In this document: positions 3,521 to 64,000 of the stretch, one piece after another
How positions within the stretch are numbered: position 1 is the stretch's first letter
Layout: every line of letters begins with the position of its first letter
Source: a virus
Taxonomy: Duplodnaviria; Caudoviricetes
Reading direction: 5' to 3' (one strand)
Virus record (IMG/VR): IMGVR_UViG_3300033991_000293
Span: 706-64,705 of that record
DNA: 64,000 nt
Program-made: the position numbers and the translations under genes
Notes under the pieces: generated by a model
The model's input: only the letters and a program-made list of their open reading frames with translations
Database searches by the model: none
Told to the model about the DNA's origin: nothing

Positions 3521-5872
3521 TCAGGCTGTTCTTGCCAAAGCCCCGCAGTTAAAGTGCTGATAGAGTGGCCCTGACGCCCCAGGGTTGCTTGTACCGAGTG
3601 CCGCCCCCGAATTCTGGAATACGAAAATCTCTATATACTCGCCAACCGCCATGTAGAACATTGCCGCCGTAGCCGTCAACACCGTTACACTGGCAGGGGA
3701 TGCTCCGTGGTAAGACATTGCAAGGAACGTATTCCCATTTTTAACAACCGCCAGTGCTCTGTTGCCGGTAGCATTGGAGTCAAATTGCACGTTACCCTGT
3801 GCCATATAGTACCCTGCGACTTGGGCAGTTAGTCTGGTTGGGGACCCGATAGCCCATCCCCCCATCGTGTCCCAAAGTTCTGTGTCCCAACTAAGAAAAT
3901 TCCAGGCATTGTTAGAGATAGACTGCGCGTTAGATCGGTAAGCCCTGCATCCAAGTGCTATGCTGCCATAGACTGAACCCCCTACATTAATACTGCCAGG
4001 GAATACTCCAGTCTGTGTACCGTTGGGAATGTACAGCACCCAACTCCCTACATTATTCAGCAGGCCGAAGTTGTTGCCGTCAGAGTAGATGAATCCCAGG
4101 CTAACACCGGCAGCCGAAATGATATGGATGTTACCAGCCACGCACATGGCCTGATCAGGAGCAGCATCACGCCCCACCATGAGTGATGCCAAAGCGTAGA
4201 CATTGTTGGTAAACTTTTGGGTTTGGCTTGCTGCGCCTGTCCGTGCACCTGACGCCAAGAGATATATTGTATGGTCATCATCGCCCAAGCCATTCAGCGC
4301 CAGACCGTGATCCAACTTGCCACAGGATGCAGCCGCTTGGTGGGTATGCTCAGGAGTTTCAGCCGCAGTGCCCCCGCTCGCTTTTTCCTTCAAGTATTGG
4401 GCATGATCATCATCCGCCAAACCATCCAGTGCCAGACCGTGATCCAGTTTGCTGCCCTGGCCTGCAGCACCTGTGTGCACGTGTGACCCTACGTCTACAC
4501 CATCCACCGTTTTGCTGGCTGCCACCGCCACATTCTCATCGAATGTCCATGCCCCTGTGACCGTTTCGGCCTTCGCCAGGCCCGCACGGTCACCGCCTAG
4601 ATGAGTGATTGTTCCTGCCCCCGCTGTGCTGGTGTACTTCGTAGCATAAAGCGCCGCCACGGCATTAGTGTAGACATATAGGTCTGCTGTGGCCCCCGTT
4701 AACTGGCAGTGGTACAGGTAATTGGTTGCTGCGTAAATGTAGGCTCCATAACGTGATCCGAGAATCCCGCCAGCCTCGAATTGGCAGTGAAAGGTTGGAG
4801 TCGTAGATGCTGCGAATAAGCCTGTCACGTAGACACCCGACCCGCTCGTCAATTCTGCCCATCCGTAACAGAAATACAATGTGCCCGCTAGGGACAGGAT
4901 ACCGATAGCATGGCAGTTTGATCCACTGGCGTGTGTGTAAGCAAAGCACTGGTAAACCTCTCCCCCTATGGCGTAGATCGCAGCCCCCTGCTGGCTCCCT
5001 GATGCTGCCGATACTGTCCAGTCCACGATCACATTCCGCGCTACGTTCCCTGTGTTGAGTACCAGCGCCGACATGGTCCCCAATTCAGCAGTTAGACTGG
5101 CCACAATCTTGATACTCTGGATGACCCCAGTCCCTGACGACAGTTGGATGACGCTATTTCCAACGCCAGGGGCAGAGAGAATACAAGCCTCGGCAGGCCC
5201 GCCCACGCCTGCGATGGAGACACCAGCCGCAACAGTATGCCGGTCAGACAGAGTCCATGTCCCAGGAGGAACCAGGATCACGTCTCCCGATGTATCAGCA
5301 GCAGTGAAGGCATCGTCAGGATCAGCGTATACGGTCACCACGCCACTACGCAGCCGTGCAACGCCAGTGAGATTCAGGTATTGCGTATGGTCATTGTCCA
5401 GCAGGCCATCCAGCGCCAGACCATGATCCAACTTGCCACAGGATGCTGCCGCCTGGTGAGCATGCTCAGGAGTCTCAGCCGCAGTGCCACCGGACCCCTT
5501 TTCTTTCAAGTATTGGGTATGATCATCGTCTCCCAGGCCGGTCAGTATCCCGTGGTCTACGACACCGCCATCCCCAGGATCGCCCTCGTGGTCATGATCC
5601 GGCAGGTCTGTAGAGAATTCAAGCCCCTCTTCAGCCGCATTGACCCTGACCCCTTTCAGTCCCTCATCCACATAGGAATCGGGAGTGTCGAGCAAATCGA
5701 GGAAGGTGGAAGCACCGGCAGTACCGCTGATCCAGGCAGTGCCATCCCAAAAGTACTCAGCCGACAAGTCTGTGTCGAGGAAGTGTGCCCCTGCTGCATC
5801 CTCTGGCAGAACCAGCGCCACCCGCTCGGCAGTCGTCCCGATGTAGTATGACCTCGGATGGATCGTGATCAT
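3521..5872 (-). CDS. tail fibre / receptor-binding protein (His-Asp repeats, beta-helix, C1q-like C-terminus)
   Basis: Last gene of the tail operon; repeated DHGL.LDGL.DDDH.QYL; G/A/S/T-rich beta-helix-like middle; C-term CRAYRSNAQSI...FLSWDTELWDT...TRLTAQVAGYY. Confidence 0.8.
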   Translation of the reverse strand: MITIHPRSYYIGTTAERVALVLPEDAAGAHFLDTDLSAEYFWDGTAWISGTAGASTFLDLLDTPDSYVDEGLKGVRVNAAEEGLEFSTDLPDHDHEGDPGDGGVVDHGILTGLGDDDHTQYLKEKGSGGTAAETPEHAHQAAASCGKLDHGLALDGLLDNDHTQYLNLTGVARLRSGVVTVYADPDDAFTAADTSGDVILVPPGTWTLSDRHTVAAGVSIAGVGGPAEACILSAPGVGNSVIQLSSGTGVIQSIKIVASLTAELGTMSALVLNTGNVARNVIVDWTVSAASGSQQGAAIYAIGGEVYQCFAYTHASGSNCHAIGILSLAGTLYFCYGWAELTSGSGVYVTGLFAASTTPTFHCQFEAGGILGSRYGAYIYAATNYLYHCQLTGATADLYVYTNAVAALYATKYTSTAGAGTITHLGGDRAGLAKAETVTGAWTFDENVAVAASKTVDGVDVGSHVHTGAAGQGSKLDHGLALDGLADDDHAQYLKEKASGGTAAETPEHTHQAAASCGKLDHGLALNGLGDDDHTIYLLASGARTGAASQTQKFTNNVYALASLMVGRDAAPDQAMCVAGNIHIISAAGVSLGFIYSDGNNFGLLNNVGSWVLYIPNGTQTGVFPGSINVGGSVYGSIALGCRAYRSNAQSISNNAWNFLSWDTELWDTMGGWAIGSPTRLTAQVAGYYMAQGNVQFDSNATGNRALAVVKNGNTFLAMSYHGASPASVTVLTATAAMFYMAVGEYIEIFVFQNSGAALGTSNPGASGPLYQHFNCGALARTA
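4262..4452. repeat. copy 2 of an internal direct repeat in the tail fibre gene
   Basis: Shares e.g. CAGCGCCAGACC.TGATCCAACTTGCCACAGGATGC and TTCAAGTATTGGG with 5377-5540. Confidence 0.85.
5377..5540. repeat. copy 1 of an internal direct repeat in the tail fibre gene
   Basis: Direct repeat of 4262-4425 encoding DDDH.QYLKEK.SGGTAAETPEH.HQAAASCGKLDHGLAL. Confidence 0.85.
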
Positions 5873-7369: not shown

Positions 7370-10300
7370 CTATGGCAAGTGGCAAACGAACACAGACGCC
7401 CCGACATTGTCGCATCCTGCCGCCCACGGATCAGCCGCCGTGACTGTCCCTGACCCGTACCAGATAGGGATGACAGATAATAAGTTACCTGTCTTATCGT
7501 GCGCCGACCCATCCCACCAGTAGATGGCTTGTTTGTTTGGATTGACCGCATGCGGTTTGTCTTTCCGTAGGATGATCAGCCCATCGCCCCCTTCCATTGC
7601 AACAGCCCCGATGTATCCGATTCGCCCAGGTTGCGACCCGCCGCCGAAAAGATCATCGCTGTTAATACCAATGTCTGCCCCATCACGTAAGACGTGGTTG
7701 GTATTATCCCCCAGGTCACGTGCTGGACACCAGTACACGCCATCGTTCCCCGCCGTGAGATTCACGTAAGATGCCTCTCTGTGCACGTGGTCCTCGATCA
7801 ACCCAAGTGGCCCCCACAGTGCCCCGTCAGCATCGATGCCATTTGCCGCATCCTCAGTGGAAACGTAAACCTCGCTACCAAACAGCGCCACATGGTGTAC
7901 CCCATTTCTGTGTACATCCTCATAGCCAGGGAGCAGCCCCCCTGGTGACCAGGTTATTGTCCTATAGGCTGATGGGGATGGGCAGTCCAGAATTGGTGTC
8001 GGGCATTGGGGAATGCGCAGGAAACAGAAACTGGTGCCTGAAATCTCGAAGTACCAACCACAAGGAAATGGTATCCCCCCATATACCCCGAATTGCTTTG
8101 TACCCACTTTGAAGTGCTGTCCAATGTAGAAAGTTCCAGCACAGTATCCAATCCCCGCATGACAATATCGCTGAGAGTATGGTGGTTGTGGGCATTGTTG
8201 TGAATAACACAGGCCACATGCACCGCCCCCGCCGGTCACCTCACCTCCGCCGTAAGCCGTGATCCGGTAGAACGTTGACCCGACCCGGGCCCCAGTTTCG
8301 GTATACCCCACGCTCGGCAGGATCGCCGCCCCCGTGCTGGCCTCACCTGGCCCCGACGATACCAGACTGCGCAACTGACCCCAGAAATCGTCATAGTGAT
8401 ACGTCCCACAGTCACCGGCAGGTACACGCGCAGCGTAGGCATCGGCCTGGCTATAGACCAGCCGCCAGATGGGAGAAACGTCGAAAATGTTGTCACAACG
8501 CCAGACCCCAACGTTGGCAGCCGTATCTGTCACGGTTTGTCCCGATGTACCCGTGACCGCCCAGGCCCCCTTGCCATCGTACATGTCCAGTCGCGCAGTC
8601 CATAGCACGCCGTAGATGCTACCCCGTACATTCCGCCAGGTAGGGGAGTCTGATTGGAAGTTCTCTGTCAGCACCAGGTTGATCCGGTCATGGGCCAAAA
8701 CCACGTCTGGAGCAGGGACTGCTGGCGGTAGTGGGGGAGGGGGAGGGGGAGGGGGAGGGGGGGGAAGGGCAGGGGATGGAGGGGAAGCAGGTATGTCACC
8801 ATCGCATGCTGTCTCCTGCACAGTGTAGCCTTCGAAGTCCACGTCGACCAGCAACACGCCACCATCCTCGCCACCCTGGAGTGAATAGGAGACCCGCCTG
8901 GGGATGAGTTTGAAATCGGTCAGCGTCACGCCCCTGGGATTGTCCCCTGCTGCAATGCTGATAGTCGCATATTGCCAGGGGCAGATGTCCAGCACCCGCA
9001 AATTCATGCCGAACCGTACCAGCATCGAGGGATAGGGATTGTTGGCATGCCCCATGATCAGGCCCGCCAGGAGATTGGCCTGGGCCTGGGATGTCAGTGC
9101 CAGGCGGTCTTCTGCCTGTACTCCGCCGTACTGCTTCATCACGTGTCCAGGGGCAAGCGAGAAATAGGGTGTGCCTTTCTGGGTCACGTTTGACCAGGCC
9201 ACGCCCGCCAGGTCAATCCGCCCCACTGCTGCCAGCACCTGCCGCTCGATCTGGACATTATCGCGCCAATAGTCAGGTTGGATACTCAAGATGGTAATGC
9301 CCGACCTGCTGCCCACAGGGACGAACTGACTGTCGGTCTGGATATATAGCCGCCCAAGATGATCGCAACGGGCAGCCGCCTTAATCGTCCGGTCAGCGAT
9401 CTCCTGCAACTGCTGCCAGAGAGTGGCCAGGCCGGAATTGATCATCCCGATGGGAACGTTTGTCCCAGGGGGAAAGATATCCATCATCCGCGTACAGGTA
9501 GACCGCCAGTGGAGGAAGTGCCAAAGTGCATCCTCCACCTTCATGTTTTGCATCTCCAGCCAGGTAGCAGGAGTGGCAGGCCCGACGTCCTTGACCCCTG
9601 ATGGGAACCCCGTAACTTTGCTGATCAGGGACTGTGGTCCTTCGGCCAGAAATTCGACAGTTCCGTGCGCAGGATCGTAGATGATGGATTCCCCCACAAT
9701 CCAGCCGATGGCCAGGATGTTTTCGCGCTCTTTGACAATACCGACCGACCCCTCCGCCGGCCCGTAGGCATCCTCGGCGAACAGGATTACCAGCGCCCGA
9801 TTTCGGATCTCCGCCAGCGTAGCATTGGCATGGGCAGTAACACGGAAACTCCAGCCGCCACGTCCGCTGTCCCCCTCACAGGAACCCATCTCGACCGCCC
9901 ATAGGGGGGGATGGGCATCGTCGTAGATGTATACATAGCGGTAGCCCGTGAAAGTCTTAGTATTGGCAGCCATCACCGTGCAGGAGACCCGATACCAACC
10001 AGCCGCATTGTAAGTGATGGTGGGAGTCGCCGTGGTCATCCCCGATGTCGCCGATGCCCCAGGAGCAGCCCACGACCATCCCGTGATTGTGGACCCCCTT
10101 ACCCAGGAGTCTGTCCCATCGAAGCCGGTCACCTGCACTGTAGCCCCCGTCAATTTCTTGACCACGTGTGGCCCCAAGACAGGGACTGGATCGCAGGTCA
10201 AGTGCTGTGTACCATAGGCCACGTCCCAATCCATGTACACCACGAATGGATCGCGCCCAACAATCCGCAAGTGCTTGGCCCAAATCCCAAAGTCCTCGAT

Positions 10301-44241: not shown

Positions 44242-45061
44242 AGAAACCCCCTTTTACCATTGCCAGGCCGACCAGCCACGTGATCACAGTCAGCCCAATC
44301 AGTACCCAGGCCCGCTCGCGCCGATAGATGAAAGCCAATACCGGCACCAAGTGGTAAATCAGGAGATACGGCGATGTGAGCAGGCCAAGCGCCAACCATT
44401 CAGCCTGGCCCATTGGGCCAGCACCCACCAGCAGGATCGCCCCGACAATCCCGACCTGGCTGATGCTGTGGGAAGTTTGCCAGTTTACCGCTTGGGTAGA
44501 GACCGGCACCCTGGCAGGCCAAAAACCCCAAACCAGAAAAGAACACAGTGTCACCGCCACCACCGGCAGGAACATCCGGACCCCGCCCCGCCAGGCCCTG
44601 GCCAATGCCCACCAGCACAGGATGTGTGGTTTGCAGGCCACCAATAGCAATGACCACTGTGGAGGAAGCAGGAAGGCCAGGGGCAGGAACACATCGATCT
44701 GGCCATAGTGCAGCGCCGCCAGCACCGGCATGGACAGTGCCAGCAGCAACACGCGCCACCAATCACGGCAGTAGACCGCAAGGACTGCAAAGCCCAGGGA
44801 GATAAAAACCCCGTAGCCTACAAGGGGGGGAAGAATTGCGATGGGATGAAGCAGCACAAATAGCCAGGGGGGATAACACGCCCAGGCAAAGCGATATGGA
44901 TCGTCGAGGGGATGGAGTGCAGCAGGCCGGAAGTACCGCATCCAATCTGAATCTGCGATGTCTCCAGGAGCCAGTGATGCCCCGAAGATGGCCACCAGCA
45001 GGAAGGCCACCAGAACAGCCGCCATACCGACTGCACGACTGGCCTGGATTTTAGGCATCAT
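44213..45061 (-). CDS. polytopic membrane glycosyltransferase, GT87/DUF2029-like
   Basis: Multiple TM helices; D...Y, YPPW, GQID and KPH motifs. Confidence 0.7.
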   Translation of the reverse strand: MMPKIQASRAVGMAAVLVAFLLVAIFGASLAPGDIADSDWMRYFRPAALHPLDDPYRFAWACYPPWLFVLLHPIAILPPLVGYGVFISLGFAVLAVYCRDWWRVLLLALSMPVLAALHYGQIDVFLPLAFLLPPQWSLLLVACKPHILCWWALARAWRGGVRMFLPVVAVTLCSFLVWGFWPARVPVSTQAVNWQTSHSISQVGIVGAILLVGAGPMGQAEWLALGLLTSPYLLIYHLVPVLAFIYRRERAWVLIGLTVITWLVGLAMVKGGFYESKYWSIF

Positions 45062-46499
45062 GCACCTCGCCATTTGCAGTCTGCACCAGCCTGGGTTGCA
45101 GGCCCATCAACGCCAGACGCTCGAGTGTAGCCGCGCAGTATTTAGGCTCAATGTCCTGCCCAAAAACAACGCGCCCCATGCGCTCGCCTGCTACGATAGT
45201 CGCCCCCAGGCCCACAAACGGATCAAGCCCTAGTGATCCAGGTAGTGATGAGTTTTTGATGTGCGCCGCCACCAGTTCCGGCGGTTTGGCGGTAGGATGA
45301 TAAATCGACCGTTTTGGCCGACTGACGACGATCACCGATGTCTGATTCCTACCACCATACCATGACCGCCTGTGCCCCTGTGTCCAGCCGTAGAGGATAG
45401 CCCCATGTTCTTCTGCATAATGCAGGCCGGCATCGATATCGGGAGCAGCCTCGCCTTCTTCTTCCATGCCACCGTACCACGGAACTTCACCGCCCTGAGT
45501 CCAGCCATAGAGGATTGGCTCATGGCGGTAGTGATAGTCTGAGTGGCCAAGCACCATGCTATCCTTGACCCAAACCAGGTCTTGGTGCAGGAGCCACCCC
45601 GCCTCACGAAAACAGCGCATAAAGATCTCGGTCAGTGGTCCCCCTGGGTGACACACATAGATGGGACATCCCTTCACGAGAAATGGGGATATCGCCGCGA
45701 ACGATTCTGAAAGAAGCGTCTCGATCTCCTCCGGAGAGTCCCCCTGAAGCACCAGCGCATCCTTTGTGCGCCCCGCATAGTCTGCCCCATAAGGCGGATC
45801 TGTCCATACCCATGCTGCCAGGTTGTCAGCCATGAGATTAGCCAAGTCGTACCGACTTCGGGAGTTTCCACAACGCAGGCAGTGCCATCCACCTCGTACA
45901 GTCCTGGAGGGGATAGCCCATAACTGGCCAATCTCAACTTGCCAGATATCCAGCAGCCGTTCAGGGGCATCGCCGCCCTGTGGTCCTGGATCGTCCCCCA
46001 CCTCAGCCCCAGGCAGTTGATCAAGATTCAGACTGGCAAACATCTCGGCCAACCGCTCTTCAGTACCAGCCGCCAGCGCCGCCAATTCCTGGCCCGCCTG
46101 CTGGTGGATATCCACCAGCAGGAGTCCCAATTGTTCCTGGTCTGGATCTGAGAGTCTAGCCATTTCATTGTCGACCGCCAGGTAAGCCATGACCTCGACC
46201 TGGCTCCAGGTAACAGGCAGGATATCGGCCTTCAGAGTTTGCCAACGTTCTAGCACCATCGCCCGCCAGACCCCCTCGCCTGCCACGATCAGGAATGCCC
46301 CATCGCCCCGATCTTGTAGCACGAGGGATTTGACCTGGCCAAAGCGCCGCAGGGAATAGCGCAGCCTGGCAATCTGAGTGGGACCGTGTTTGTTGTAATT
46401 TTGGGGATGTGGTACACAAGCGGAGATAGGGACATCGTCCCGATGGATGACCTCGCCCACCGGTAGATTATCTGCCGATGGAGCAGCCTTCTTTTTCAT
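45051..46499 (-). CDS. ParB-like domain fused to an N6A/N4C DNA methyltransferase
   Basis: PHPQNYNKH...GQ...IVAGEG..RA...DN ParB-N; TDPPYG, HPTAKP and DPFVGLGAT. Confidence 0.9.
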   Translation of the reverse strand: MKKKAAPSADNLPVGEVIHRDDVPISACVPHPQNYNKHGPTQIARLRYSLRRFGQVKSLVLQDRGDGAFLIVAGEGVWRAMVLERWQTLKADILPVTWSQVEVMAYLAVDNEMARLSDPDQEQLGLLLVDIHQQAGQELAALAAGTEERLAEMFASLNLDQLPGAEVGDDPGPQGGDAPERLLDIWQVEIGQLWAIPSRTVRGGWHCLRCGNSRSRYDLANLMADNLAAWVWTDPPYGADYAGRTKDALVLQGDSPEEIETLLSESFAAISPFLVKGCPIYVCHPGGPLTEIFMRCFREAGWLLHQDLVWVKDSMVLGHSDYHYRHEPILYGWTQGGEVPWYGGMEEEGEAAPDIDAGLHYAEEHGAILYGWTQGHRRSWYGGRNQTSVIVVSRPKRSIYHPTAKPPELVAAHIKNSSLPGSLGLDPFVGLGATIVAGERMGRVVFGQDIEPKYCAATLERLALMGLQPRLVQTANGEVHDA

Positions 46500-46558
46500 T
46501 CAGCCTCCAATCCGATTGACAACTCAGCCGCACAATTGCTCGCCCTGCCCTGCCGTAC

Positions 46559-46587
46559 AGTATAGCAGAGAAATCGAGAAAAGTCTA
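46559..46587 (-). promoter_or_regulatory. sigma70-type promoter for the methylase operon
   Basis: TAGACT-17-TATACT with TG extension. Confidence 0.6.
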
Positions 46588-46621
46588 GCCCCATTGGGTA
46601 CTATGTTCACCGATTTACTAC

Positions 46622-46650
46622 TTGACACCAATTCACAGAAGGTGTATAAT
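46622..46650 (+). promoter_or_regulatory. sigma70-type promoter for the partition operon
   Basis: TTGACA-17-TATAAT, exact consensus. Confidence 0.85.
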
Positions 46651-46685
46651 ACCTGTACATTTGTCTTATAGAAGAAAGGAGTCCG

Positions 46686-46949
46686 ATGGACACACCAGAA
46701 CCGACAACAGTACAGGCAGATTTCACGTCCAGTGCTAAGGCCGACCCCGACCCCATCCTCGTCTCGGTCACCGATCTGCGCCGAGATATGGCGAAGTATT
46801 TCGGCCTGGCCTCCAGGGGTGAGATTGTGGTGATCACGAAAGAGGGAGTGCCCTACCTTCAACTTGTCCCTGTCCGCTATAGGTATTACATCCCCGATGT
46901 GCTGGAACAGTCTGTCCCTCGCGCCACGCCCGCTGTGGCCAGCGAGTAA
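46686..46949 (+). CDS. Phd/YefM-like DNA-binding protein
   Basis: VSVTDLRRDMAKYF....RGEIVVITKEG.P...LVP. Confidence 0.7.
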   Translation: MDTPEPTTVQADFTSSAKADPDPILVSVTDLRRDMAKYFGLASRGEIVVITKEGVPYLQLVPVRYRYYIPDVLEQSVPRATPAVASE

Positions 46950-46979
46950 GTCCTCAAGAAATCCCAGGAGGGTTGACCC

Positions 46980-47744
46980 ATGATCACATTTTGTGTAGTG
47001 AATCAAAAGGGTGGGACAGCGAAAACCACGACCGCCGTCACGATGGCCCATGCCCTGGCGCTCGAGGGACGACGAACCCTTATCGTCGACACCGACCCCC
47101 AGGGGCATGTGGCTGTGGCCCTGGGAAAGGATAAGGCCCCAGGTATCCGCGCATTGATTGAGCAGCCCCATAACCTGCCGCTCGTGCAGGCCCGCCCCAA
47201 CCTGTGGATGCTGCCGAGTGACAAATCCACCGAACAGGCCAAGTGTATCCTGACCGGTATGCCATTTAGGGAGACTATCCTGCGTAGAGCCCTGGCCAAC
47301 CTAGACTTTGATGTCACCGTGATTGACTGTGCCCCAAGTCTAGATGTCCTGCACCTTGCCGCTATGATCGCCGCCAACTGGATGATCATCCCGACCCGTC
47401 TGGATTTCCTGGCAGTGGACGGAGTGAATGAAGTCCTCCGTACACTGACCACAGTCCGCCAGGCCGGCACCGCCCCGCGAGTCTTGGGTATCTTGCCGAC
47501 CTTTCTCGACCGGCAGACCTCCGAGACAGTTGTCCAACTCCGTACTTTGGCCAGCGCCTTTGTCAGTCTGGTCCTCCCACCCATCCCTGTGGATACCAAA
47601 CTGCGTGAAGCGCCAGCACATGGCTTGACGATCTGGGAGTATGCTCCCACGTCTCGCAGTGTTGTGGGTACACAAACCGGAAATGGACGCAAGGTTGGAG
47701 GATATCTGGAATTCATGGCACGAGTGAGGAGAGTCCTGAAATGA
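46980..47744 (+). CDS. parA: ParA/Soj partition ATPase
   Basis: NQKGGTAKTTT, DTDPQG, IDCAPS and KLREAPAHG. Confidence 0.95.
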   Translation: MITFCVVNQKGGTAKTTTAVTMAHALALEGRRTLIVDTDPQGHVAVALGKDKAPGIRALIEQPHNLPLVQARPNLWMLPSDKSTEQAKCILTGMPFRETILRRALANLDFDVTVIDCAPSLDVLHLAAMIAANWMIIPTRLDFLAVDGVNEVLRTLTTVRQAGTAPRVLGILPTFLDRQTSETVVQLRTLASAFVSLVLPPIPVDTKLREAPAHGLTIWEYAPTSRSVVGTQTGNGRKVGGYLEFMARVRRVLK

Positions 47745-48175
47745 GTAAGCACCTGGGCCCCAATGTTGTGGATGCCGCTCAGGTCATCCCTGAACCTGAA
47801 CTATCTCGTGTGCGCCGACCATCAGTTGATCCGGCAGTCGCCGCTCTCCTCGGCCAGGATGATCAGCGTCAGGCCATGCAGATTATGACACCGGCAGGCC
47901 GCAGGAAGTGGAAGCGGGAGCAGGCCCGAACTCGCGCAACGTATGACCTGCCGCAGGCCCTGCTCGATGCTGTCCGGCAGGTAGGAGAGCAGGAAGCCCT
48001 GCCCAATAGTGCAGTCGTAGCCGCCCTCGTAGCCCAGGGGTTACATCATCTCCAGGCCGGCACCTGGAGCCTGGAGGGAGCAAAGTCAATGGCCCGCTCG
48101 CCGCTTTTCGAGTACCTGGTGGATGAAGAAACAGTGCTGGCCATTTTGACCGGAAAACTGAGTTTACAGATTTGA
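47741..48175 (+). CDS. putative centromere-binding protein (RHH/ParG-like)
   Basis: Coupled to parA; RATYDLPQALLDAVRQ...SAVVAALV ribbon-helix-helix pattern. Confidence 0.6.
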   Translation: MSKHLGPNVVDAAQVIPEPELSRVRRPSVDPAVAALLGQDDQRQAMQIMTPAGRRKWKREQARTRATYDLPQALLDAVRQVGEQEALPNSAVVAALVAQGLHHLQAGTWSLEGAKSMARSPLFEYLVDEETVLAILTGKLSLQI

Positions 48176-48209
48176 GGGAAATCCTGCCGACAGGCCAGAA
48201 TGTGGCCGA

Positions 48210-48291
48210 ACGGCACCGTTATACGGCACCCACTATGGTGCCCCTGATGGCACCCTGGACGGCACCCTGGATGGCACCGTTATACGGCACC
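48210..48291 (+). repeat. array of AYGGCACC 8-mers
   Basis: Copies at 48210, 48223, 48247, 48259, 48271 and 48284, plus a variant at 48235; 12-13 bp period. Confidence 0.9.
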
Positions 48292-48405
48292 GCCTGATGC
48301 CCTACGATGGCAGGAGAGTCCTGAAAAGTCCTATGCTGGACAACTCTACGTGTAGGCGATTTCTGACCCTAGAATCGCCTCCTACGGAATTGAGCAGGAG
48401 GAAAT

Positions 48406-50508
48406 GTGAGAAAGAAAATCGAATTCATGGCAGACCGGATCGAAGCCCTTTTGTCTCTGCATAAAGTGCCCGCCAGGGTTGCAGGGGGAACACTAACCCC
48501 GCGATGGATACGCTTTCAGGTCTTGCCGCAACCTGGCTATAAGATCAGCCGCATCAAGGGATTGACAGAGGAACTCGCAGCCGCTTTGGATGTACCCAAC
48601 GTCCGAGTGGCACGCATGGGAGCAGCGATCACCATCGAAGTGCCACGGGATGACCAGCAGCCGGTCAGGTTTGTCCCGCTCATGGCATATCTGGCTGAGG
48701 AGGGGGGATTTGTCCATAGCAATGCCCTAATTGGCCTATGTGAAGATGGAGCCCCCCTCCTGGTCCGGATTGCTTCCCCCGATGTCGCCCATATTCTGAT
48801 TGCGGGAAACACAGGATCAGGCAAGACCATGCTGATGACGTCCATGATCATGAGTCTGGCCATGACCCATAGGCCCCCCACCCCATCGGAACTGCTTCAA
48901 AGCAGGTATGCGAAACAGGCAAAACCGGAATCTGGTGGGCAGCAGACCCTGGGACTGATTCTGGTTGACCCAAAGGGGCATGCCTTTGCCCCGTTTGTCG
49001 ATCTGCCGCATTTGATCAGACCCATCATCCATGATCACGCTGAAACTACAGAATGCCTGGCCAGTCTTGTCCGCCTGATGGAGAAAAGAAGCGCCTCGCC
49101 CAACTTCACCGACCCCACGATCATCCTCTTTATCGACGAACTCGCCGACTACCTGATGGTGGAAGGCAAACAGGCAAACTTTCTCTTGACCCGCCTGACA
49201 CAAAGGGGAAGGGAAGCAGGTATCCACATTGTTGCTGCGACCCAAAAGCCAACAGCCGCCGTGCTCGGGCCCCTGGTGAAAGCCAACTTCCCTGTGCGTC
49301 TCGTTGGGCGAGTGGCATCCATCGAAGATGCCCGCACAGGGACAGGATGGGCAGGGACAGGAGCAGAAAGATTACAGGGGAGTGGGGATTTCCTGGCGAT
49401 TGGGGAAGGCCGATCTCTGCATTTCCAGTCGCCCCATGTCTCTGTCGAGGAACTAGAACGCATAGTCACCTGGATCTGCAAGACAGGGGGATGGACAAAG
49501 CAGCCCCCCGAACATCAGCAGGGGAAAGATACTCTTGGCAGCAAGGTGATGAGCAGCCTGGACAAGATTGTTGCACTATTCGTGCAGCCGGCTCCAGCAC
49601 CGCAGGAACCACCGCCCCAGGTCAAAGCCCAGGCGACACCTGCCCCCCCATCCTCCGCACTGCTGACCCGCCCCCAGGAAGATATACTGCCGCCTGCGCC
49701 CCCGCCCGCCCCAGATGACGTGGAAGTGCTGGTGCAACGTCTGCAGGCCCTGGATTGGGACCCGAACCGCTCTATCCGCGAAGCCTGTCGCGCCCTGGGC
49801 AAAAGTGAAGGGGGAGCCCCCTACCGTTTGGTTTCACAGGCAGTCGAACGTCTAAGGGCAGCCGCATTGACAAGCCAAGACGACAGTCAAGATGCGCAGC
49901 AGCAGGAGGAACAAGCCACCAGCGCCATCGAATGGCAGGTATATGAATGTCGCCTGCCGGTCAGTGACATCAGCCTGGCACAAGTCCTCATGGGGGATGA
50001 TCAGCCAGGGGATGATCAGCAGGGAAGGGGGGAACAAGTCCAGGAGGGGATGCTGCCTCCCATAGAACTGCCAGCGACTGCGACTGCGACTGCGAACGCT
50101 ACCACCGAGAAAGACCCCGACGCCACGCCAGCGCCGGATCTGCCGCCTTCTTTCGATAGTCGCAGTCGCACAGTCGCAGGGGAAGCAATCGACCCTGCCC
50201 GCATCCCCCCATCCATCTGGCTGGATCGGGAGTGCCTGCACCGCCTCGACCCACTGGCCAGGCTTTGGTTGCAGATACTCCAGCGCCAGGCCGATGCTAC
50301 AATACAACTGGCCCAAATCAGCGCCGACCTGCTGAGACTGACCACTGCTGGCAAGATGCATGGGGATGGTGATCACCTGGAGTTTCTATCCAATGCCCTG
50401 CAGGCCCTGCGCCTCAATATGGAAGCCAGGGACCGTGACCGCACAATCGATGCCTTTGCTGATGTACTCGACGCCGTGTTGATCGGGATAGGGGGAAAGT
50501 CAGAGTGA
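48406..50508 (+). CDS. FtsK/SpoIIIE (TraB-like) DNA translocase without an N-terminal membrane domain
   Basis: FtsK alpha domain, HILIAGNTGSGKT, VDPKG, FIDELAD, GREAGIHIVAATQKP and GAERLQGSGD. Confidence 0.9.
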   Translation: MRKKIEFMADRIEALLSLHKVPARVAGGTLTPRWIRFQVLPQPGYKISRIKGLTEELAAALDVPNVRVARMGAAITIEVPRDDQQPVRFVPLMAYLAEEGGFVHSNALIGLCEDGAPLLVRIASPDVAHILIAGNTGSGKTMLMTSMIMSLAMTHRPPTPSELLQSRYAKQAKPESGGQQTLGLILVDPKGHAFAPFVDLPHLIRPIIHDHAETTECLASLVRLMEKRSASPNFTDPTIILFIDELADYLMVEGKQANFLLTRLTQRGREAGIHIVAATQKPTAAVLGPLVKANFPVRLVGRVASIEDARTGTGWAGTGAERLQGSGDFLAIGEGRSLHFQSPHVSVEELERIVTWICKTGGWTKQPPEHQQGKDTLGSKVMSSLDKIVALFVQPAPAPQEPPPQVKAQATPAPPSSALLTRPQEDILPPAPPPAPDDVEVLVQRLQALDWDPNRSIREACRALGKSEGGAPYRLVSQAVERLRAAALTSQDDSQDAQQQEEQATSAIEWQVYECRLPVSDISLAQVLMGDDQPGDDQQGRGEQVQEGMLPPIELPATATATANATTEKDPDATPAPDLPPSFDSRSRTVAGEAIDPARIPPSIWLDRECLHRLDPLARLWLQILQRQADATIQLAQISADLLRLTTAGKMHGDGDHLEFLSNALQALRLNMEARDRDRTIDAFADVLDAVLIGIGGKSE

Positions 50509-51059
50509 ATTGGACAGAACTGCTCGCCGCCTTCGGGAGCCTATGGGAAGTGCCCCGCCGAGTCCAGGCCATGTTGACTAGGCCCCTGGTAGATATCCCG
50601 ATCTATCGCCTGGCCAATTGGAGTGGATGGGAAGGTGAACGGCTCCTGGCGTATTATGGAGTCCGTACCTACAGCCGTGGTTTTGACCCAATCTTGGGTG
50701 AGTACCGCCAGGATGACCCACACTGCCTCCATCTCTATGTTTCGATCAAGCAGGCAAGATGGGCCGAACATCTGCTGCTCGCCGCCCGGGCCCCATTGGC
50801 CCTCATTCGATGGCATACCTATTATCCGCCCTTCATGCCTGTACCCTGGCATGCACCATTGAAGCCTGCCGGAGTGACCGGTTGGCTCCTGACTGCGCTC
50901 GACGCCCTGACGGGCGACACAGTAACCCGGCACCTGGAGACTTTGCTTCAGGCCGGAGAAAGGACACCACGATGTTTGTACCGCAAATTGTATCCCAGGC
51001 CCCGCAAGCACCGGAAAAGAAACCGAAAGCCCGCCGATGGCCATACGTTTTATTGGTAG
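50505..51059 (+). CDS. hypothetical protein
   Basis: GTGA-coupled to the FtsK gene. Confidence 0.6.
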   Translation: MNWTELLAAFGSLWEVPRRVQAMLTRPLVDIPIYRLANWSGWEGERLLAYYGVRTYSRGFDPILGEYRQDDPHCLHLYVSIKQARWAEHLLLAARAPLALIRWHTYYPPFMPVPWHAPLKPAGVTGWLLTALDALTGDTVTRHLETLLQAGERTPRCLYRKLYPRPRKHRKRNRKPADGHTFYW

Positions 51060-51448
51060 TGCCCCTGGCAGTCTTCGGCATTACCCTCGCAGTGATAGTG
51101 GCCAGGCATCTGACGCCTGAAGCCCAGGCAGTGCTGGCAGGAGCAGCCTGTGGCTTAGTGGCCGCTGTCCCTGTCAGCCTGGCCATTGTCGCGGTCACTG
51201 GCAGGATGCGATCTCGGAAAGAAGATAAAGAGCAGCCTGCTGCTCTCCCAGGATATCCCATGCCATACGGCCAACCATACGGCCAACCGCCCATCGTCAT
51301 CCAGACCACGGCAGCCCCATCACCACAACCGCCCTGGACCCCCCCACCTGCAGAGTGGGGAACACAAACCCAACGCAAATTTACCGAGATAGGGGCAGGC
51401 CACGGTTTGGGAGTGGGTGATTTGCTCGATCTGGAACCGGATGGCTGA
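50972..51448 (+). CDS. two-TM membrane protein with Pro-rich tail
   Basis: RBS AAGGA; two hydrophobic helices; C-term RKFTEIG. Confidence 0.7.
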   Translation: MFVPQIVSQAPQAPEKKPKARRWPYVLLVVPLAVFGITLAVIVARHLTPEAQAVLAGAACGLVAAVPVSLAIVAVTGRMRSRKEDKEQPAALPGYPMPYGQPYGQPPIVIQTTAAPSPQPPWTPPPAEWGTQTQRKFTEIGAGHGLGVGDLLDLEPDG

Positions 51449-51458
51449 AAATTGGGAC

Positions 51459-51487
51459 TTGACAAGTCTGAAACTCTGATGTATAAT
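51459..51487 (+). promoter_or_regulatory. sigma70-type promoter for the phage sigma gene
   Basis: TTGACA-17-TATAAT, exact consensus. Confidence 0.85.
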
Positions 51488-51534
51488 TAGTGTACCGACT
51501 GAGACCGACCGAGAGAAACCCAGGAGGAAACAGG

Positions 51535-52101
51535 ATGGACAATCAGAGTATACCCGCAGAATTGACAGACCTGGCCACGGGCATCCGCCGCATCGCAGGG
51601 AGCCTGACCGCTCATTACCAGGGAAGCCTCGAGTTTGATGATCTGGAGCAGCAGATGTGGTTGGTATACTGTGAGCAGGCCGACACCGACTTTATCAACC
51701 GCCCACTTCCATATCAACTAAACCGCCTGGCCTGGCGTACCCGTGATTGGGCCCGTCATGAACTGGCTAAAATGAACCACATCGCCATCGAAGTTGAACT
51801 CGATGGCCTGGATGAGTGGGAATATCTGGCCTTACCAGTTTACATCACCGACACCGACGACGACCCGCTCGCTAAGATGATCGCCCAGGAGACTGACCGA
51901 GACCTGGTGCAGATGATCACCCAGGCCCTGGCGATTTTGGAATCCCACAACCCACGCACGGTCACCGTAGCCCAGGAACTGATGACCGGAAAAGAAAAGT
52001 GCCAGATCGCCCGTGACCTGGGCATCGGCCAAAGTGCTGTCTCCGGTCATGTGCAACTTCTACGAACGACCCTTACCACTGTGCTTTCGCAGGTTGCATG
52101 A
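51535..52101 (+). CDS. sigma-70/ECF-like sigma factor
   Basis: IRRIA...EFDDLEQQMWL region-2-like; GKEKCQIARDLGIGQSAVSGHV region-4 HTH. Confidence 0.7.
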   Translation: MDNQSIPAELTDLATGIRRIAGSLTAHYQGSLEFDDLEQQMWLVYCEQADTDFINRPLPYQLNRLAWRTRDWARHELAKMNHIAIEVELDGLDEWEYLALPVYITDTDDDPLAKMIAQETDRDLVQMITQALAILESHNPRTVTVAQELMTGKEKCQIARDLGIGQSAVSGHVQLLRTTLTTVLSQVA

Positions 52102-52617: not shown

Positions 52618-52646
52618 TTGACCAAGAGACAAGACTGATGTACAAT
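52618..52646 (+). promoter_or_regulatory. sigma70-type promoter
   Basis: TTGACC-17-TACAAT. Confidence 0.6.
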
Positions 52647-52655
52647 AGGAGCAGC

Positions 52656-53336
52656 ATGCCGAACGATGGGTTGATTCACTACAACAGAATCGTCGAGGGG
52701 AGCCTGACCGATGGGCCTGGTATCCGCACAGTGCTCTTTATGCAGGGATGTACTATCCACTGCCCAGGATGCCAGAACCAACACCTGTGGGAACAGGATG
52801 GAGCCCTGGTGGAAGCACCATTCCAAGTGGCCGAGAAACTTCTGGCCACAGGCCAGGCGATTACCCTCACAGGGGGGGAACCGACTGACCAGCCGCTCGC
52901 ACTTTACACGTTGATCATCACGCTCAAGCGCCACCAGCCGGCACCGCATATCATCGTCTACACAGGCCGAACCCTCGACGATGTGGCAGGCGATAAAAGT
53001 GAAGCAGGCCGACAGGCCCTGGCAGCATTGATCTCCACCGACGTCGTGGTGGATGGCCCATTTATCGCCGCCCAGGATGATGACATGCTGCAGTGGAAAG
53101 GATCGGGCAATCAGCGCCCGATCGACATGCAGGCAACACTGTGGGCGATGTTCCAGGCCGAAGATAACAGGTTGGATCAGATTGCTCACTACATTGTGCC
53201 TGCTGAATGTTGGGACACCATGACCCTGATTATCACGCCCAGGGGAGTGGTTGGCCCTGCCGGATTGATCGAAAAGATAGCCCAGGAGGGAGATTGTGTT
53301 GTCGACCATCGACCATGTGGCAGCACCCGCACCTGA
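52656..53336 (+). CDS. NrdG-like radical SAM protein
   Basis: DGPGIRTVLFMQGCTIHCPGCQN, TGGEP, YTG, DVVVDGPF and GSGNQR. Confidence 0.85.
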   Translation: MPNDGLIHYNRIVEGSLTDGPGIRTVLFMQGCTIHCPGCQNQHLWEQDGALVEAPFQVAEKLLATGQAITLTGGEPTDQPLALYTLIITLKRHQPAPHIIVYTGRTLDDVAGDKSEAGRQALAALISTDVVVDGPFIAAQDDDMLQWKGSGNQRPIDMQATLWAMFQAEDNRLDQIAHYIVPAECWDTMTLIITPRGVVGPAGLIEKIAQEGDCVVDHRPCGSTRT

Positions 53337-54625: not shown

Positions 54626-55006
54626 ATGGACATTCCTGACGATATGGCCGAGTGCTACGTGTACATCGTCTTGATGTCTCTGGATGATGGAACCGTTCTC
54701 TCAATGCCTGCTACACCACCCACCCGACCCGCAGGAGTCCTCGCCTTCATGACCCCTGAAATCGCCCTGGGTTTGGCAAGTGCCCTGGGAGTCGCCGGAG
54801 TGGTACGGGCAAAAGTGAAGGAAGCCATCCGCCTGGCCCATGATCATGGCCTCGCCTTATATCTGCTCGATCATACTGAAGGCAAGTACCACGAACTCAC
54901 AGGCCGCACAGACTGTATGGGGCAGCCTGAACCCCTCGCCCTCATCACGGGCAAGCCCGCGATGGAAATCGGGATAGCCCTCAGCAGGCCCACTGGCTAT
55001 GGATAA
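54626..55006 (+). CDS. hypothetical protein, paralogue of 54202-54624
   Basis: AGVLAF...ALGLASAL and C-terminal RPTGYG. Confidence 0.65.
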   Translation: MDIPDDMAECYVYIVLMSLDDGTVLSMPATPPTRPAGVLAFMTPEIALGLASALGVAGVVRAKVKEAIRLAHDHGLALYLLDHTEGKYHELTGRTDCMGQPEPLALITGKPAMEIGIALSRPTGYG

Positions 55007-55742
55007 CTGGTTGGGACCATATCACCTGGGCCCTGATGATAGGGAGACCTTTGGCATCTACCACGGTGATTGCCGAGATTTGACCACGGCCATCCCCGAC
55101 CATAGTATCCAGTGCATCTTTACTGACCCACCATATCAAAAAGTCTTTTTACCGCTCTATGCATGGTTGGCCCAGGAAACGCCCCGCCTCCTCACGCCAG
55201 ACGGGTTTCTACTCGTCTACTCAGGAGGGTATTGGAAGGACGTGATCATGGCCATGATGCGGGAGACCCTCGAATACTGGTGGGATTACCAGACGAAATC
55301 GACCGAGTCGCCCGTGATCTGGCAGCGCATGACTGTGGCCAAAGTCAAAAGTATCCTCGTCTATCGCCCCCCAGGGGGAATCGGTCAACCGCAATTCGGG
55401 ATGGTCCTCGGTCTGTGGGAAGGTGGAACCCAGGATAAAGCATACCATACCTGGTCCCAACCGGAATCTACTCAACGCTATTTCACCCAGGCTTTTGCAG
55501 CCCCCACCGGCATCGTTTTGGATCCATTTTGTGGAGGGGGAACTTGCCCTGCGATCTGCGCGGTCACTGGCCACCGATGGTTGGCCTTCGATAATGATAC
55601 CGATGCTGTGGAGCGAAGCCGTCTCCGTGTAAGCCGCCAACTCGATGCCCCACCACCCGCTTGTAATAATAGCCCTGTGGTACAGATTCGCCTCCCCTTT
55701 GCTGTACCAACCCCTGCCGACCTGACTAATCAAGCCAACTGA
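54999..55742 (+). CDS. N6A/N4C DNA methyltransferase
   Basis: IYHGDC, FTDPPY and VLDPFCGGGT. Confidence 0.85.
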   Translation: MDNWLGPYHLGPDDRETFGIYHGDCRDLTTAIPDHSIQCIFTDPPYQKVFLPLYAWLAQETPRLLTPDGFLLVYSGGYWKDVIMAMMRETLEYWWDYQTKSTESPVIWQRMTVAKVKSILVYRPPGGIGQPQFGMVLGLWEGGTQDKAYHTWSQPESTQRYFTQAFAAPTGIVLDPFCGGGTCPAICAVTGHRWLAFDNDTDAVERSRLRVSRQLDAPPPACNNSPVVQIRLPFAVPTPADLTNQAN

Positions 55743-59443: not shown

Positions 59444-59448
59444 CCACC

Positions 59449-59475
59449 TGAAGTTTTTGCGATCAACTTCGTTAT
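59449..59475 (+). promoter_or_regulatory. phage-sigma-type promoter motif 6
   Basis: TGAAGT-15-CGTTAT. Confidence 0.7.
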
Positions 59476-59510
59476 ATAGGTAGACCATGATCATACCCAG
59501 GAGGAAACAG

Positions 59511-63852: not shown

Positions 63853-64000
63853 ATGCCTATGACAGTGACAGTGAGGATCGACGACGATGGTCAAATCACT
63901 GAGTGTGTCGTTCCCCTGCCAGATATCCAGGCCCTGGAACTCCGCATCGCTACAGAGACCCAACAGCCGAAGATGCCACTGGCTTGGGTATTTCTGAGAA
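63853..64000 (+). CDS. hypothetical protein (truncated by the window end)
   Basis: RBS GAGGA; open to the end of the window. Confidence 0.5.
   Translation, partial: MPMTVTVRIDDDGQITECVVPLPDIQALELRIATETQQPKMPLAWVFLR

Follow-up and report, generated by a model that had tools for sequence, protein, structure and literature searches.

A putative plasmid-type maintenance operon combining type Ib-like partition genes with an FtsK-type DNA pump in a tailed phage

What does a DNA pump of the FtsK/SpoIIIE family do in a tailed phage, immediately behind an array of short DNA repeats? The question is raised by IMG/VR virus record IMGVR_UViG_3300033991_000293 (64,705 nt), of which nt 706 to 64705 were analyzed and are called the window below (64,000 nt; coordinates are those of the window unless the record is named). 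The locus comprises the repeats, the FtsK gene, a coupled open reading frame (ORF), and a gene for a proline-rich protein with two transmembrane (TM) segments. An earlier note, made from the sequence alone, had read it as a conjugation-like module in which a TraB-type translocase acts on clt-type repeats, aided by a Spd-type membrane protein; for the repeats, it had named a centromere of ParA and a ribbon-helix-helix (RHH) protein as the alternative. On balance, and with moderate confidence, we explain the locus as a plasmid-type prophage maintenance operon, in which a type Ib-like partition system is combined with a host-derived septal DNA pump.

The FtsK motor and its membrane partner

The genes concerned are the following.

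48406 to 49530, plus strand: FtsK alpha and beta motor, residues 1 to 375 of a protein of 700 amino acids (aa), with Walker A GNTGSGKT and Walker B FIDELAD
50505 to 51059, plus strand: orf184, member of a rare conserved family, translationally coupled to FtsK (its GTG start at 50505 overlaps the FtsK stop, GTGA)
50972 to 51448, plus strand: two-TM Pro-rich partner of 158 aa, with hydrophobic segments (windows 22 to 30 and 51 to 61) and a Pro-rich tail

The whole FtsK ORF extends from 48406 to 50508 and encodes a motor of the FtsK/SpoIIIE family: FtsK_SpoIIIE (PF01580) matched at 1.1e-24, with 87.6 bits against a cut-off of 24, Pfam FtsK_alpha matched at 3.5e-11, and FtsK in the PDB (2iut) matched at 3e-36. 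It is, however, not a canonical FtsK, which would have an N-terminal multi-TM domain and a gamma domain (PF09397). Pfam found no gamma domain in the 700-aa protein, and no 19-residue hydropathy window reached 1.6 (maximum, 1.31), in agreement with the earlier description of an ATPase devoid of TM helices. The NCBIfam model for FtsK (NF007615) scored 104 bits, against a cut-off of 1566. The corresponding model for plasmid_TraB (NF041214) scored 19.1 bits (E 3.9e-4; no single stretch passing), against a cut-off of 800.

A protein search (5.8 billion) gave 1,804 matches at E ≤0.001 among 8,000 scored candidates. Among the matches listed (the best 120), most are 385 to 495 aa long and about 57 to 63% identical over the motor, and the named ones are FtsK proteins of Anaerolineae or Chloroflexota metagenome-assembled genomes (MAGs). 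In the species genomes, 87 stretches encode relatives, of which 80 were kept; Chloroflexota lineages appear in all but three of the record titles. The motor is 44 to 65% identical to 28 short FtsK proteins from the loci (MAGs of Anaerolineae, Thermoflexia, and Caldilineae), compared to about 30% for canonical FtsK. A scan of viral contigs with the single FtsK protein found no relative.

In a quick IQ-TREE tree of 92 rows, which has many open forks, the window motor is nested in a clade of 83 short FtsK rows (SH-aLRT, 94), while seven canonical Chloroflexota FtsK proteins form a separate clade (99). Tra of a Streptomyces actinomycete integrative and conjugative element (AICE; locus L099) sits on a very long separate branch. 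Five host genomes each encode two canonical gamma-bearing FtsK proteins (737 to 847 aa) together with one or two short paralogs. In the tree, the mobile copies occur at scattered places and have rather long branches. Judged by its place among these paralogs, the motor is host-derived. One side observation concerns L079, from a MAG labelled Candidatus Krumholzibacteriia, whose short FtsK is almost identical to that of the Anaerolineae locus L080 (end branches of 0.009 and 0.017); this may reflect a binning artefact or a recent transfer.

These data bear directly on the proposed kinship with TraB. According to that explanation, which we consider quite improbable, an anchored motor would recognize a repeat site in the genome and pump double-stranded DNA into neighboring cells without virions. 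A motor, a membrane protein, and a repeated DNA motif are indeed all present, and the Anaerolineae-type hosts are presumably filamentous. Two publications describe how TraB binds the direct 8-bp clt repeats via its C terminus, builds a channel in the membrane, and has Spd proteins as interaction partners (PMC4447253, PMC3429521). However, the TraB model matched far below its cut-off and below the FtsK model, the motor has no membrane segment, and the phylogeny, suggested earlier as a check, places it among chromosomal Chloroflexota short FtsK proteins, far from the AICE Tra. Moreover, the window encodes no GntR-type TraR regulator, unlike the AICE locus with its order GntR, Tra, Rep, Xis, Int. 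The kinship was therefore not upheld.

The coupled ORF behind FtsK turned out to be a real gene. We found 13 homologs of orf184 among 1.84 billion representatives (the best at 90%, the others at 33 to 44%, covering residues ~4 to 142), with the conserved core GWSGWE..LL..YGVR.YGRGFD...QA.WAEYLL, whereas a PDB profile search (alignment A7) gave nothing meaningful. The two-TM Pro-rich protein was likewise recognized by hydropathy. Its family (alignment A6, 29 members) shares the motifs RLS/T..A.AVLAG, PP(V/I)V, and QR.FT..G or, in more detail, RLSDEALAVLAG, a second TM helix, RRR, YPPVVVV.PP, and QR.FTVVG. Neither the partner nor orf184 matched Pfam, PHROGs, or NCBIfam, a comparison in which the Spd sequences themselves were not included.

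A partner homolog follows short FtsK in 54 of the 77 loci whose downstream sequence spans 600 nt or more, and BLAST matches occur in 60 loci. Because of this, we regard the protein as the standing partner of a chromosomal short FtsK paralog and not as the plasmid spread protein proposed earlier. Complex prediction for the FtsK motor (alignment A5) and the partner tail (residues 76 to 158) gave scores of 0.42, 0.39, and 0.47, with 0.30 for one control. The window thus has the two hallmarks of the Chloroflexota short FtsK-two-TM system, namely, a motor nested in the short clade and, downstream of it, a partner that aligns with 28 family members, here with orf184 interposed.

Genomic context of the short FtsK genes

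Neighbors were counted in the 83 loci whose FtsK ORF is 330 aa or longer. Chromosomal neighbors were found in 37 of them (LexA in 20, DNA polymerase III delta [holA] in 20, sortase in 17, DUF6391 in 14, and RecA in 8) and a partition ATPase in 11, while no locus had both partition and chromosomal markers. The pump is linked to ParA in L002, L008, L038, L076, and L086 and to ParM/Alp in L004 to L007, L057, L071, and L074. Examples of the chromosomal short FtsK-two-TM pair (among L011 to L090) are L040 (1045 to 1713), L041 (4928 to 6001), and L035 (10268 to 11278).

Since the pump recurs beside two unrelated partition ATPases, we assign it a role in the inheritance of an extrachromosomal prophage and not in conjugation; this is the main reason for our interpretation. 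The same data speak against a TraB-like module in two further respects, as partition ATPases are the constant neighbors of the mobile copies and the partner is shared with loci beside lexA, recA, and holA. From this distribution, capture of the pump and its partner by phages or plasmids appears to have taken place, perhaps more than once, in each case with placement beside a partition cassette.

The window shares its motor clade and partner family with the chromosomal operons. It differs from them in that its copy lies on a phage record with no lexA neighbor, behind par genes and a consensus promoter of its own, and in having a 325-aa extension of FtsK, the interposed orf184, and an inverted hexamer-repeat element, which is described below.

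Alternatively, the pair could serve host takeover or another auxiliary function, for instance in division control, in superinfection exclusion, or in clearing chromosomes after DNA damage, and its position behind the par genes would then be incidental. We find this rather doubtful, although it has its merits: chromosomal copies adjoin lexA and recA, and the PHROGs category of FtsK/SpoIIIE-like proteins from phages (phrog_1358, 1.5e-37) is "moron, auxiliary metabolic gene and host takeover". One publication also lists FtsK/SpoIIIE among the accessory genes of temperate phages, including a Chloroflexus-associated viral operational taxonomic unit (PMC8597652). However, in the 11 mobile loci the pair lies directly downstream of ParA or ParM, in the window within the same predicted transcription unit, and the phage-only C-terminal domains and the cis element suggest a retargeted function. 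In addition, we found no GAACN4GTTC box (at most one mismatch) in 46400 to 51600, a box type that may not be the one used by these hosts.

Partition genes and repeat array

Upstream of FtsK lie three features that belong together.

46980 to 47744, plus strand: small ParA-type partition ATPase of 254 aa without an N-terminal DNA-binding domain (AAA_31, 6.5e-33, 114.6 bits; CbiA, 2e-19, 70.2 bits)
47741 to 48175, plus strand: adaptor of 144 aa, a probable centromere-binding protein, whose start overlaps the ParA stop (ATGA)
48210 to 48314, no strand assigned: array of nine units of 12 to 13 bp with the core GGCACC/GGTGCC (quasi-palindrome GGYRCC), a probable partition centromere and operator

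The ATPase matched PHROG 164 (ParA-like partition protein) at 4.4e-40 and NCBIfam ParA_partition with 74.9 bits, which is under the equivalog cut-off of 180. It is a small deviant-Walker-A ParA ATPase, as found in type Ib partition systems. Homologs of the adaptor follow ParA in L002 (69%), L038 (28 to 32%), L101 (36%), and L103 (29%), and the adaptor is translationally coupled to the ParA ATPase in all adaptor loci. Among the FtsK loci, BLAST found adaptor homologs in L002 and L038 only, and a scan of viral contigs with the adaptor found only the contig of L002. As to its fold, matches stayed weak and below the cut-off (RHH_5, E 0.0048, in one of three homologs; HTH_62, E 0.0017, in the window copy), and the adaptor profile (alignment A2) had no meaningful match in the PDB.

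The six direct AYGGCACC 8-mers noted earlier upstream of FtsK are indeed present, as six exact copies at 48210 to 48291 (starting at 48210, 48223, 48247, 48259, 48271, and 48284). The 8-mer is not enriched in the window as a whole (8 copies, with 6.38 expected and 8 reached in 32 of 100 shuffles); its clustering lies far above chance, with about 0.008 copies expected per 82 bp. The units are spaced by 10 to 13 bp and include two degenerate units, at 48297 and 48307, as well as one in inverted orientation at 48235 (ATGGTGCC).

An array follows the adaptor in all five loci that have an adaptor homolog and downstream DNA (the window, L002, L038, L101, and L103). In the four loci other than the window, arrays with a 12- to 13-bp period begin within ~30 to 40 bp of the adaptor stop, so that an iterated, centromere-like array adjoins the operon in each of them, as it does, with nine units, in the window. 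L101 harbors ParA and two adaptor paralogs together with two arrays, with no FtsK match in its 8.3 kb. It is a metagenome par locus, and its arrays lie at 4370 to 4460 and 4550 to 4640, its tandem adaptor paralogs at 3992 to 4366 and 5041 to 5472. Conversely, when 14 loci from phages or linked to par genes (the window, L002, L003 to L009, L057, L071, L074, L076, and L086) were scanned for k-mer clusters, a GGCACC/GACACC-type array was detected in the window and L002 only. The more degenerate array of L038 was found by reading the sequence; in that locus, a GC-rich hairpin followed by T residues, resembling a terminator, separates the array from FtsK.

Comparison of the window and L002 arrays, which are in register and have unit positions in common, revealed that a core of GGCACC in one array can face GGTGTC or GACACC in the other. 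Because the orientation of the core flips, the unit is a quasi-palindrome (GGYRCC/GRYRYC) without conserved polarity. Such non-polar units would fit a symmetric dimeric centromere or operator protein of the RHH type and are the opposite of a polar loading site such as KOPS or the TraB repeats. We therefore favor the array as the centromere of ParA and the adaptor, which had been the alternative in the earlier note: it tracks these two genes in five of five loci, its orientation is not conserved, and it occurs once without FtsK. By the same association, and since no such array was detected in the other FtsK loci scanned, the repeats do not seem to be clt-type sites of the translocase, which further weakens the TraB explanation.

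A very unlikely variant is that the array acts chiefly as a transcriptional operator for the FtsK genes and not as a centromere, with the adaptor as repressor. The array precedes the FtsK start by 90 bp, with a conserved hairpin in between, and RHH-type proteins are common repressors. However, we found no promoter-like site between the array and FtsK, the arrays of L101 occur without FtsK, and the adaptor is coupled to ParA throughout. Since centromere and operator roles coincide in type Ib systems, this variant also overlaps with the partition centromere that we favor.

The phage and its host

The record is 100% complete according to CheckV. We assign it to a tailed phage because genes for a portal, a large terminase, a tail protein, a head protease, and a major head protein are present in the window. 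No match to a tyrosine or serine recombinase (Phage_integrase, Resolvase) was found in six frames of the whole record, in a search that detected them in 14 of 14 and 12 of 14 reference genomes. With head and tail genes, par genes, and no integrase or resolvase match, the view of the element as a tailed phage carrying plasmid-type maintenance genes has been borne out. A DnaD_N/DnaA_N protein is encoded at 390 to 2036. The last ~124 nt of the record (63877 to 64000 in the window) repeat record nt 17 to 140 (L107), and contigs from two DNA runs, compared by eye, read from the record end into its start with no host flanks. We also observed a 39-nt near-repeat at record nt 232 to 270 and window 59446 to 59484, each copy just ahead of a ribosome-binding site.

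Relatives of the motor point to hosts among the Chloroflexota, of the Anaerolineae/Thermoflexia type; we take Anaerolineae-type hosts to be filamentous bacteria.

The C-terminal extension of FtsK and the inverted hexamer repeats

Compared to the chromosomal short FtsK proteins, the window FtsK is extended by 325 aa at its C terminus. This part of the gene contains three features.

49714 to 49896, plus strand: three-helix C-terminal domain (residues 437 to 497) holding SIREACRALG, with an AlphaFold predicted local distance difference test score (pLDDT) of 96 to 98 in context and 88.9 alone
50074 to 50177, no strand assigned: inverted hexamer-repeat element, with 3.7 copies of GCGACT at 50074 to 50095 and AGTCGC AGTCGC AC AGTCGC at 50158 to 50177
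50227 to 50508, plus strand: C-terminal helical domain (residues ~608 to 700), common to P0002, with helices of pLDDT 72 to 82 and generic helical matches only

The three-helix domain (~60 residues) comes after a Pro-rich linker and is separated from the C-terminal helical domain by a disordered stretch (pLDDT <50). As known from homolog rows and loci alone, it is kept in 11 of the 13 rows of alignment A1 and across A3 and is more divergent in L005 to L007, L038, and L071; a scan with this small domain found the contigs of L002, L003, and L004 only. The segment SIREACRALG, described earlier as helix-turn-helix-like, does lie inside a conserved three-helix domain. In structural comparison, several GntR-type winged-helix cores matched this domain with Z scores of 4.0 to 4.7, and the best fold match is an FF domain (Z, 5.1). 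For a 276-residue C-terminal model, Foldseek returned nothing from the PDB at E ≤0.001, and VIA-align wide found generic helical hairpins only (residues 205 to 276). In L008, a related segment recognized by eye forms a separate ORF (8035 to 8610) between a 359-aa FtsK and the two-TM gene, from which it seems that the small domain may work in trans.

The hexamer element encodes the disordered linker of FtsK, and its tandem form is unique within the 64-kb window. Counterparts made of other hexamers, namely, GCTACC (L003 and L004), GCTACT (L053), TCTACC/TCTACT (L038 and L074), and ACTACT (L007), are situated at the 3' end of FtsK or immediately beyond it in these six loci, and the contig of L002 ends within the left arm. 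In translation, the right arm gives SRSR for the window and VEVE for L038, and aligned homolog proteins imply GSGS or GNGN for P0014 and P0010; in L003, L007, and L074, the arm lies outside the coding sequence. Because it reads differently or is non-coding, the complementarity of the arms must be kept at the nucleic-acid level and not at the protein level. Indeed, L004 has the layout of the window (two units, AC, one unit), although the two variable positions of its hexamers differ from those of the window in the left and right arms alike. Exact arms of at least 12 nt were found in four of seven elements, compared to 16 of 267 random 750-nt control windows, and the other three elements have imperfect arms. 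RNA fold z-scores ranged from -3.0 to -5.2 over the elements (-3.1 for the window). Among the elements listed in the comparison with the control windows, none from a locus with chromosomal context shows tandem-repeat arms.

The three-helix domain of the phage forms, together with an inverted hexamer array that co-varies among them, is newly seen in the sequences compared here; a full-text search of the literature returned no description of the short FtsK-two-TM pair, of its par linkage in phages, or of the hexamer element. The element may be the pump's own two-armed DNA site, reminiscent of TraB and clt, or it may be an intercistronic RNA hairpin, for instance a processing or stability element ahead of the ribosome-binding site of the partner. 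That the phage forms add a small helical domain and an element whose arms differ by phage, as TraB/clt pairs do, also counts in favor of the otherwise improbable TraB-like transfer module. More tentatively still, and as an idea that we consider unlikely, Chloroflexota phages could repeatedly have captured the two-part FtsK pump of the host and made it element specific by means of a small DNA-reading domain and a cognate site of two inverted arrays of three hexamers (consensus NCNACN) that varies among phages. The pump would load at this one site and carry the plasmid-prophage across closing or closed septa, as a device for sequence-directed segregation and possibly for intercellular spread, an independent analogue of TraB/clt that arose from a chromosomal paralog.

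Operon layout

Promoters, a further gene, and a hairpin frame the genes described above.

46622 to 46650, plus strand: consensus sigma-70-type promoter (TTGACA, 17 nt, TATAAT; 12 of 12 matches) ahead of the operon
46686 to 46949, plus strand: 87-aa ORF, weakly Phd/YefM-like, the first gene of the operon (PhdYeFM_antitox, E 0.0026, below the cut-off; NCBIfam phd_fam, E 0.0012)
48355 to 48379, plus strand: hairpin (GGCGATT-N11-AATCGCC) that follows the array and precedes FtsK, kept in L002, with no T-run after it
51459 to 51487, plus strand: second consensus promoter (12 of 12 matches), the start of the next unit
51535 to 52101, plus strand: 188-aa sigma-like gene behind the second promoter (weak matches to Sigma70_ECF/GerE and PHROG sigma)

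No terminator-like site was predicted on the plus strand between the promoter at 46622 and position 51448. Because of this, and given the promoters at 46622 and 51459, the region from the Phd-like gene through ParA, the adaptor, the array, FtsK, and orf184 to the two-TM gene has the appearance of a single transcription unit. Homologs of the 87-aa ORF, 68 to 72% identical, precede ParA in L002 and L102, and the 188-aa protein encoded behind the operon may, by its matches, be a phage sigma-like regulator. Rfam gave no match in 46400 to 51600 (E up to 1).

Other features of the window

A 482-aa DNA methylase is encoded at 45051 to 46499 on the minus strand (N6_N4_Mtase, 2.2e-18; weak ParB_N-like N-terminal part, E 0.0019), divergent from the par operon and with a 73% identical counterpart in L002. 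A second methylase lies at 54999 to 55742, and a radical-SAM protein resembling the anaerobic ribonucleotide reductase activase at 52638 to 53336 on the plus strand (PHROG 626, 2.5e-27). The tetramer AGCT is almost absent from the window, with zero counts for AAGCT, AGCTA, AGCTC, AGCTG, GAGCT, and TAGCT, a scarcity that looks like the avoidance of a palindromic restriction site.

Oligomers show an extreme strand bias. In the window, 97 of 1,503 hexamer pairs have 95% or more of their copies on one strand, for example (plus to minus) GCCCTG (110:0), CCCGCC (103:0), CCGACC (101:1), and CCGGCACC (26:0), and GAGGC, GAGGT, GGGCT, and GGTTC never occur on the plus strand while their complements occur 68 to 147 times. 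The bias is equal in regions of minus-strand and plus-strand genes. It is common to related phage loci (45 of 393 hexamer pairs in L002, 73 of 731 in L004, and 42 of 683 in L005), and host chromosomal loci are without it (0 to 4 of about 800 to 900 pairs). As 97 of the 1,503 pairs are equally extreme, CCGGCACC, with 26 copies on the plus strand and none on the minus strand, was set aside as a KOPS-like signal. In phage T7, EcoP15 sites in one orientation are described as an escape from Type III restriction (PMC3874151); the bias of the window differs in that it involves many motifs at once.

Discussion

Gene content, synteny, family membership, the association of the array with ParA and the adaptor, and the absence of an integrase are established by this analysis. 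We propose that a single consensus promoter would drive six genes (Phd-like, ParA, adaptor, FtsK, orf184, and two-TM). The array would be the partition centromere, and probably also an operator, to which adaptor dimers would bind, thereby linking ParA with the DNA. From the host, where the pair adjoins lexA and recA, the phage would have acquired the motor and its membrane partner. The partner would anchor the motor at the membrane or the division septum, and the motor would clear closing septa of phage-plasmid DNA by pumping, leaving every cell of a filament with a copy. Finally, the phage-specific three-helix domain would bias the pump to phage DNA, possibly via the inverted hexamer element in the 3' end of its own gene.

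The window resembles several known systems and also deviates from each of them. Like the type Ib partition systems ParF/ParG/parH of TP228 and delta/omega of pSM19035, the window has a small ParA that carries no DNA-binding domain, a small, basic, coupled adaptor whose C-terminal half is possibly RHH-like, and about nine short units spaced at roughly one helical turn and adjoining the operon, on an element without integrase. It differs in that its array lies downstream of the adaptor gene, its adaptor has no significant family match, and its operon runs on into an FtsK-type pump and membrane proteins. With canonical FtsK/SpoIIIE, the motor shares the alpha and beta fold of a RecA-type hexameric pump; it lacks the gamma domain (KOPS/XerD), and its contact with the membrane would presumably be made in trans via the two-TM protein. 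In having no TM domain, it resembles SftA of Bacillus subtilis, which is soluble.

The resemblance to TraB/clt/Spd of Streptomyces, that is, an FtsK-family motor with a small C-terminal helical domain, membrane partners, short repeats, and a multicellular host, stands beside clear differences, as the motor is off the TraB branch and without a membrane segment, there is no TraR/GntR regulator, the array belongs to ParA and the adaptor, and the membrane partner is of the chromosomal type, with no Spd homolog identified. Nothing found in this analysis points specifically to cell-to-cell transfer. A parallel in phages is found in plasmid-type Bacillus phages, where FtsK/SpoIIIE genes have been noted beside parABS-type systems in phages kept as plasmids (PMC11526630, PMC8597652). 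The hosts there belong to another phylum and the genes to another FtsK subfamily, in a replication-relaxation operon, and the portions of these sources consulted describe no two-TM partner or 3' repeat.

Several points weigh against a maintenance operon of this kind. The RHH fold of the adaptor is weakly indicated by its matches, and the array lies downstream of the adaptor gene, while the best-known type Ib systems have their centromere upstream of parA. In four of the five adaptor loci, FtsK follows or the contig ends, so that L101 is the one adaptor locus in which the array occurs apart from FtsK, beside the many FtsK loci that lack an array. The phage copies of the motor are scattered on long branches of a quick tree. 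Without a gamma domain, the KOPS reading and XerD activation of FtsK are not simply transferable to this motor. A packaged, circularly permuted lytic genome would equally give a circular or terminally redundant assembly, and the two runs that cross the record ends may be the source sample and hence not independent evidence. Lastly, we infer all the steps of binding, localization, and pumping.

Most known plasmid-type prophages come from Proteobacteria and Firmicutes. If our interpretation is true, the window would represent such a prophage in the Chloroflexota, for which hardly any phage genetics exists. The recurrence of the pump and its partner beside either ParA or ParM suggests that in filaments the positioning of a plasmid may not suffice and that a septal DNA pump may join the inheritance kit. 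The three-helix domain and the co-varying repeats would be a compact case of a translocase gaining sequence specificity without a gamma domain. Beyond the phage, the system would give a handle on the function of the chromosomal short FtsK operon beside lexA.

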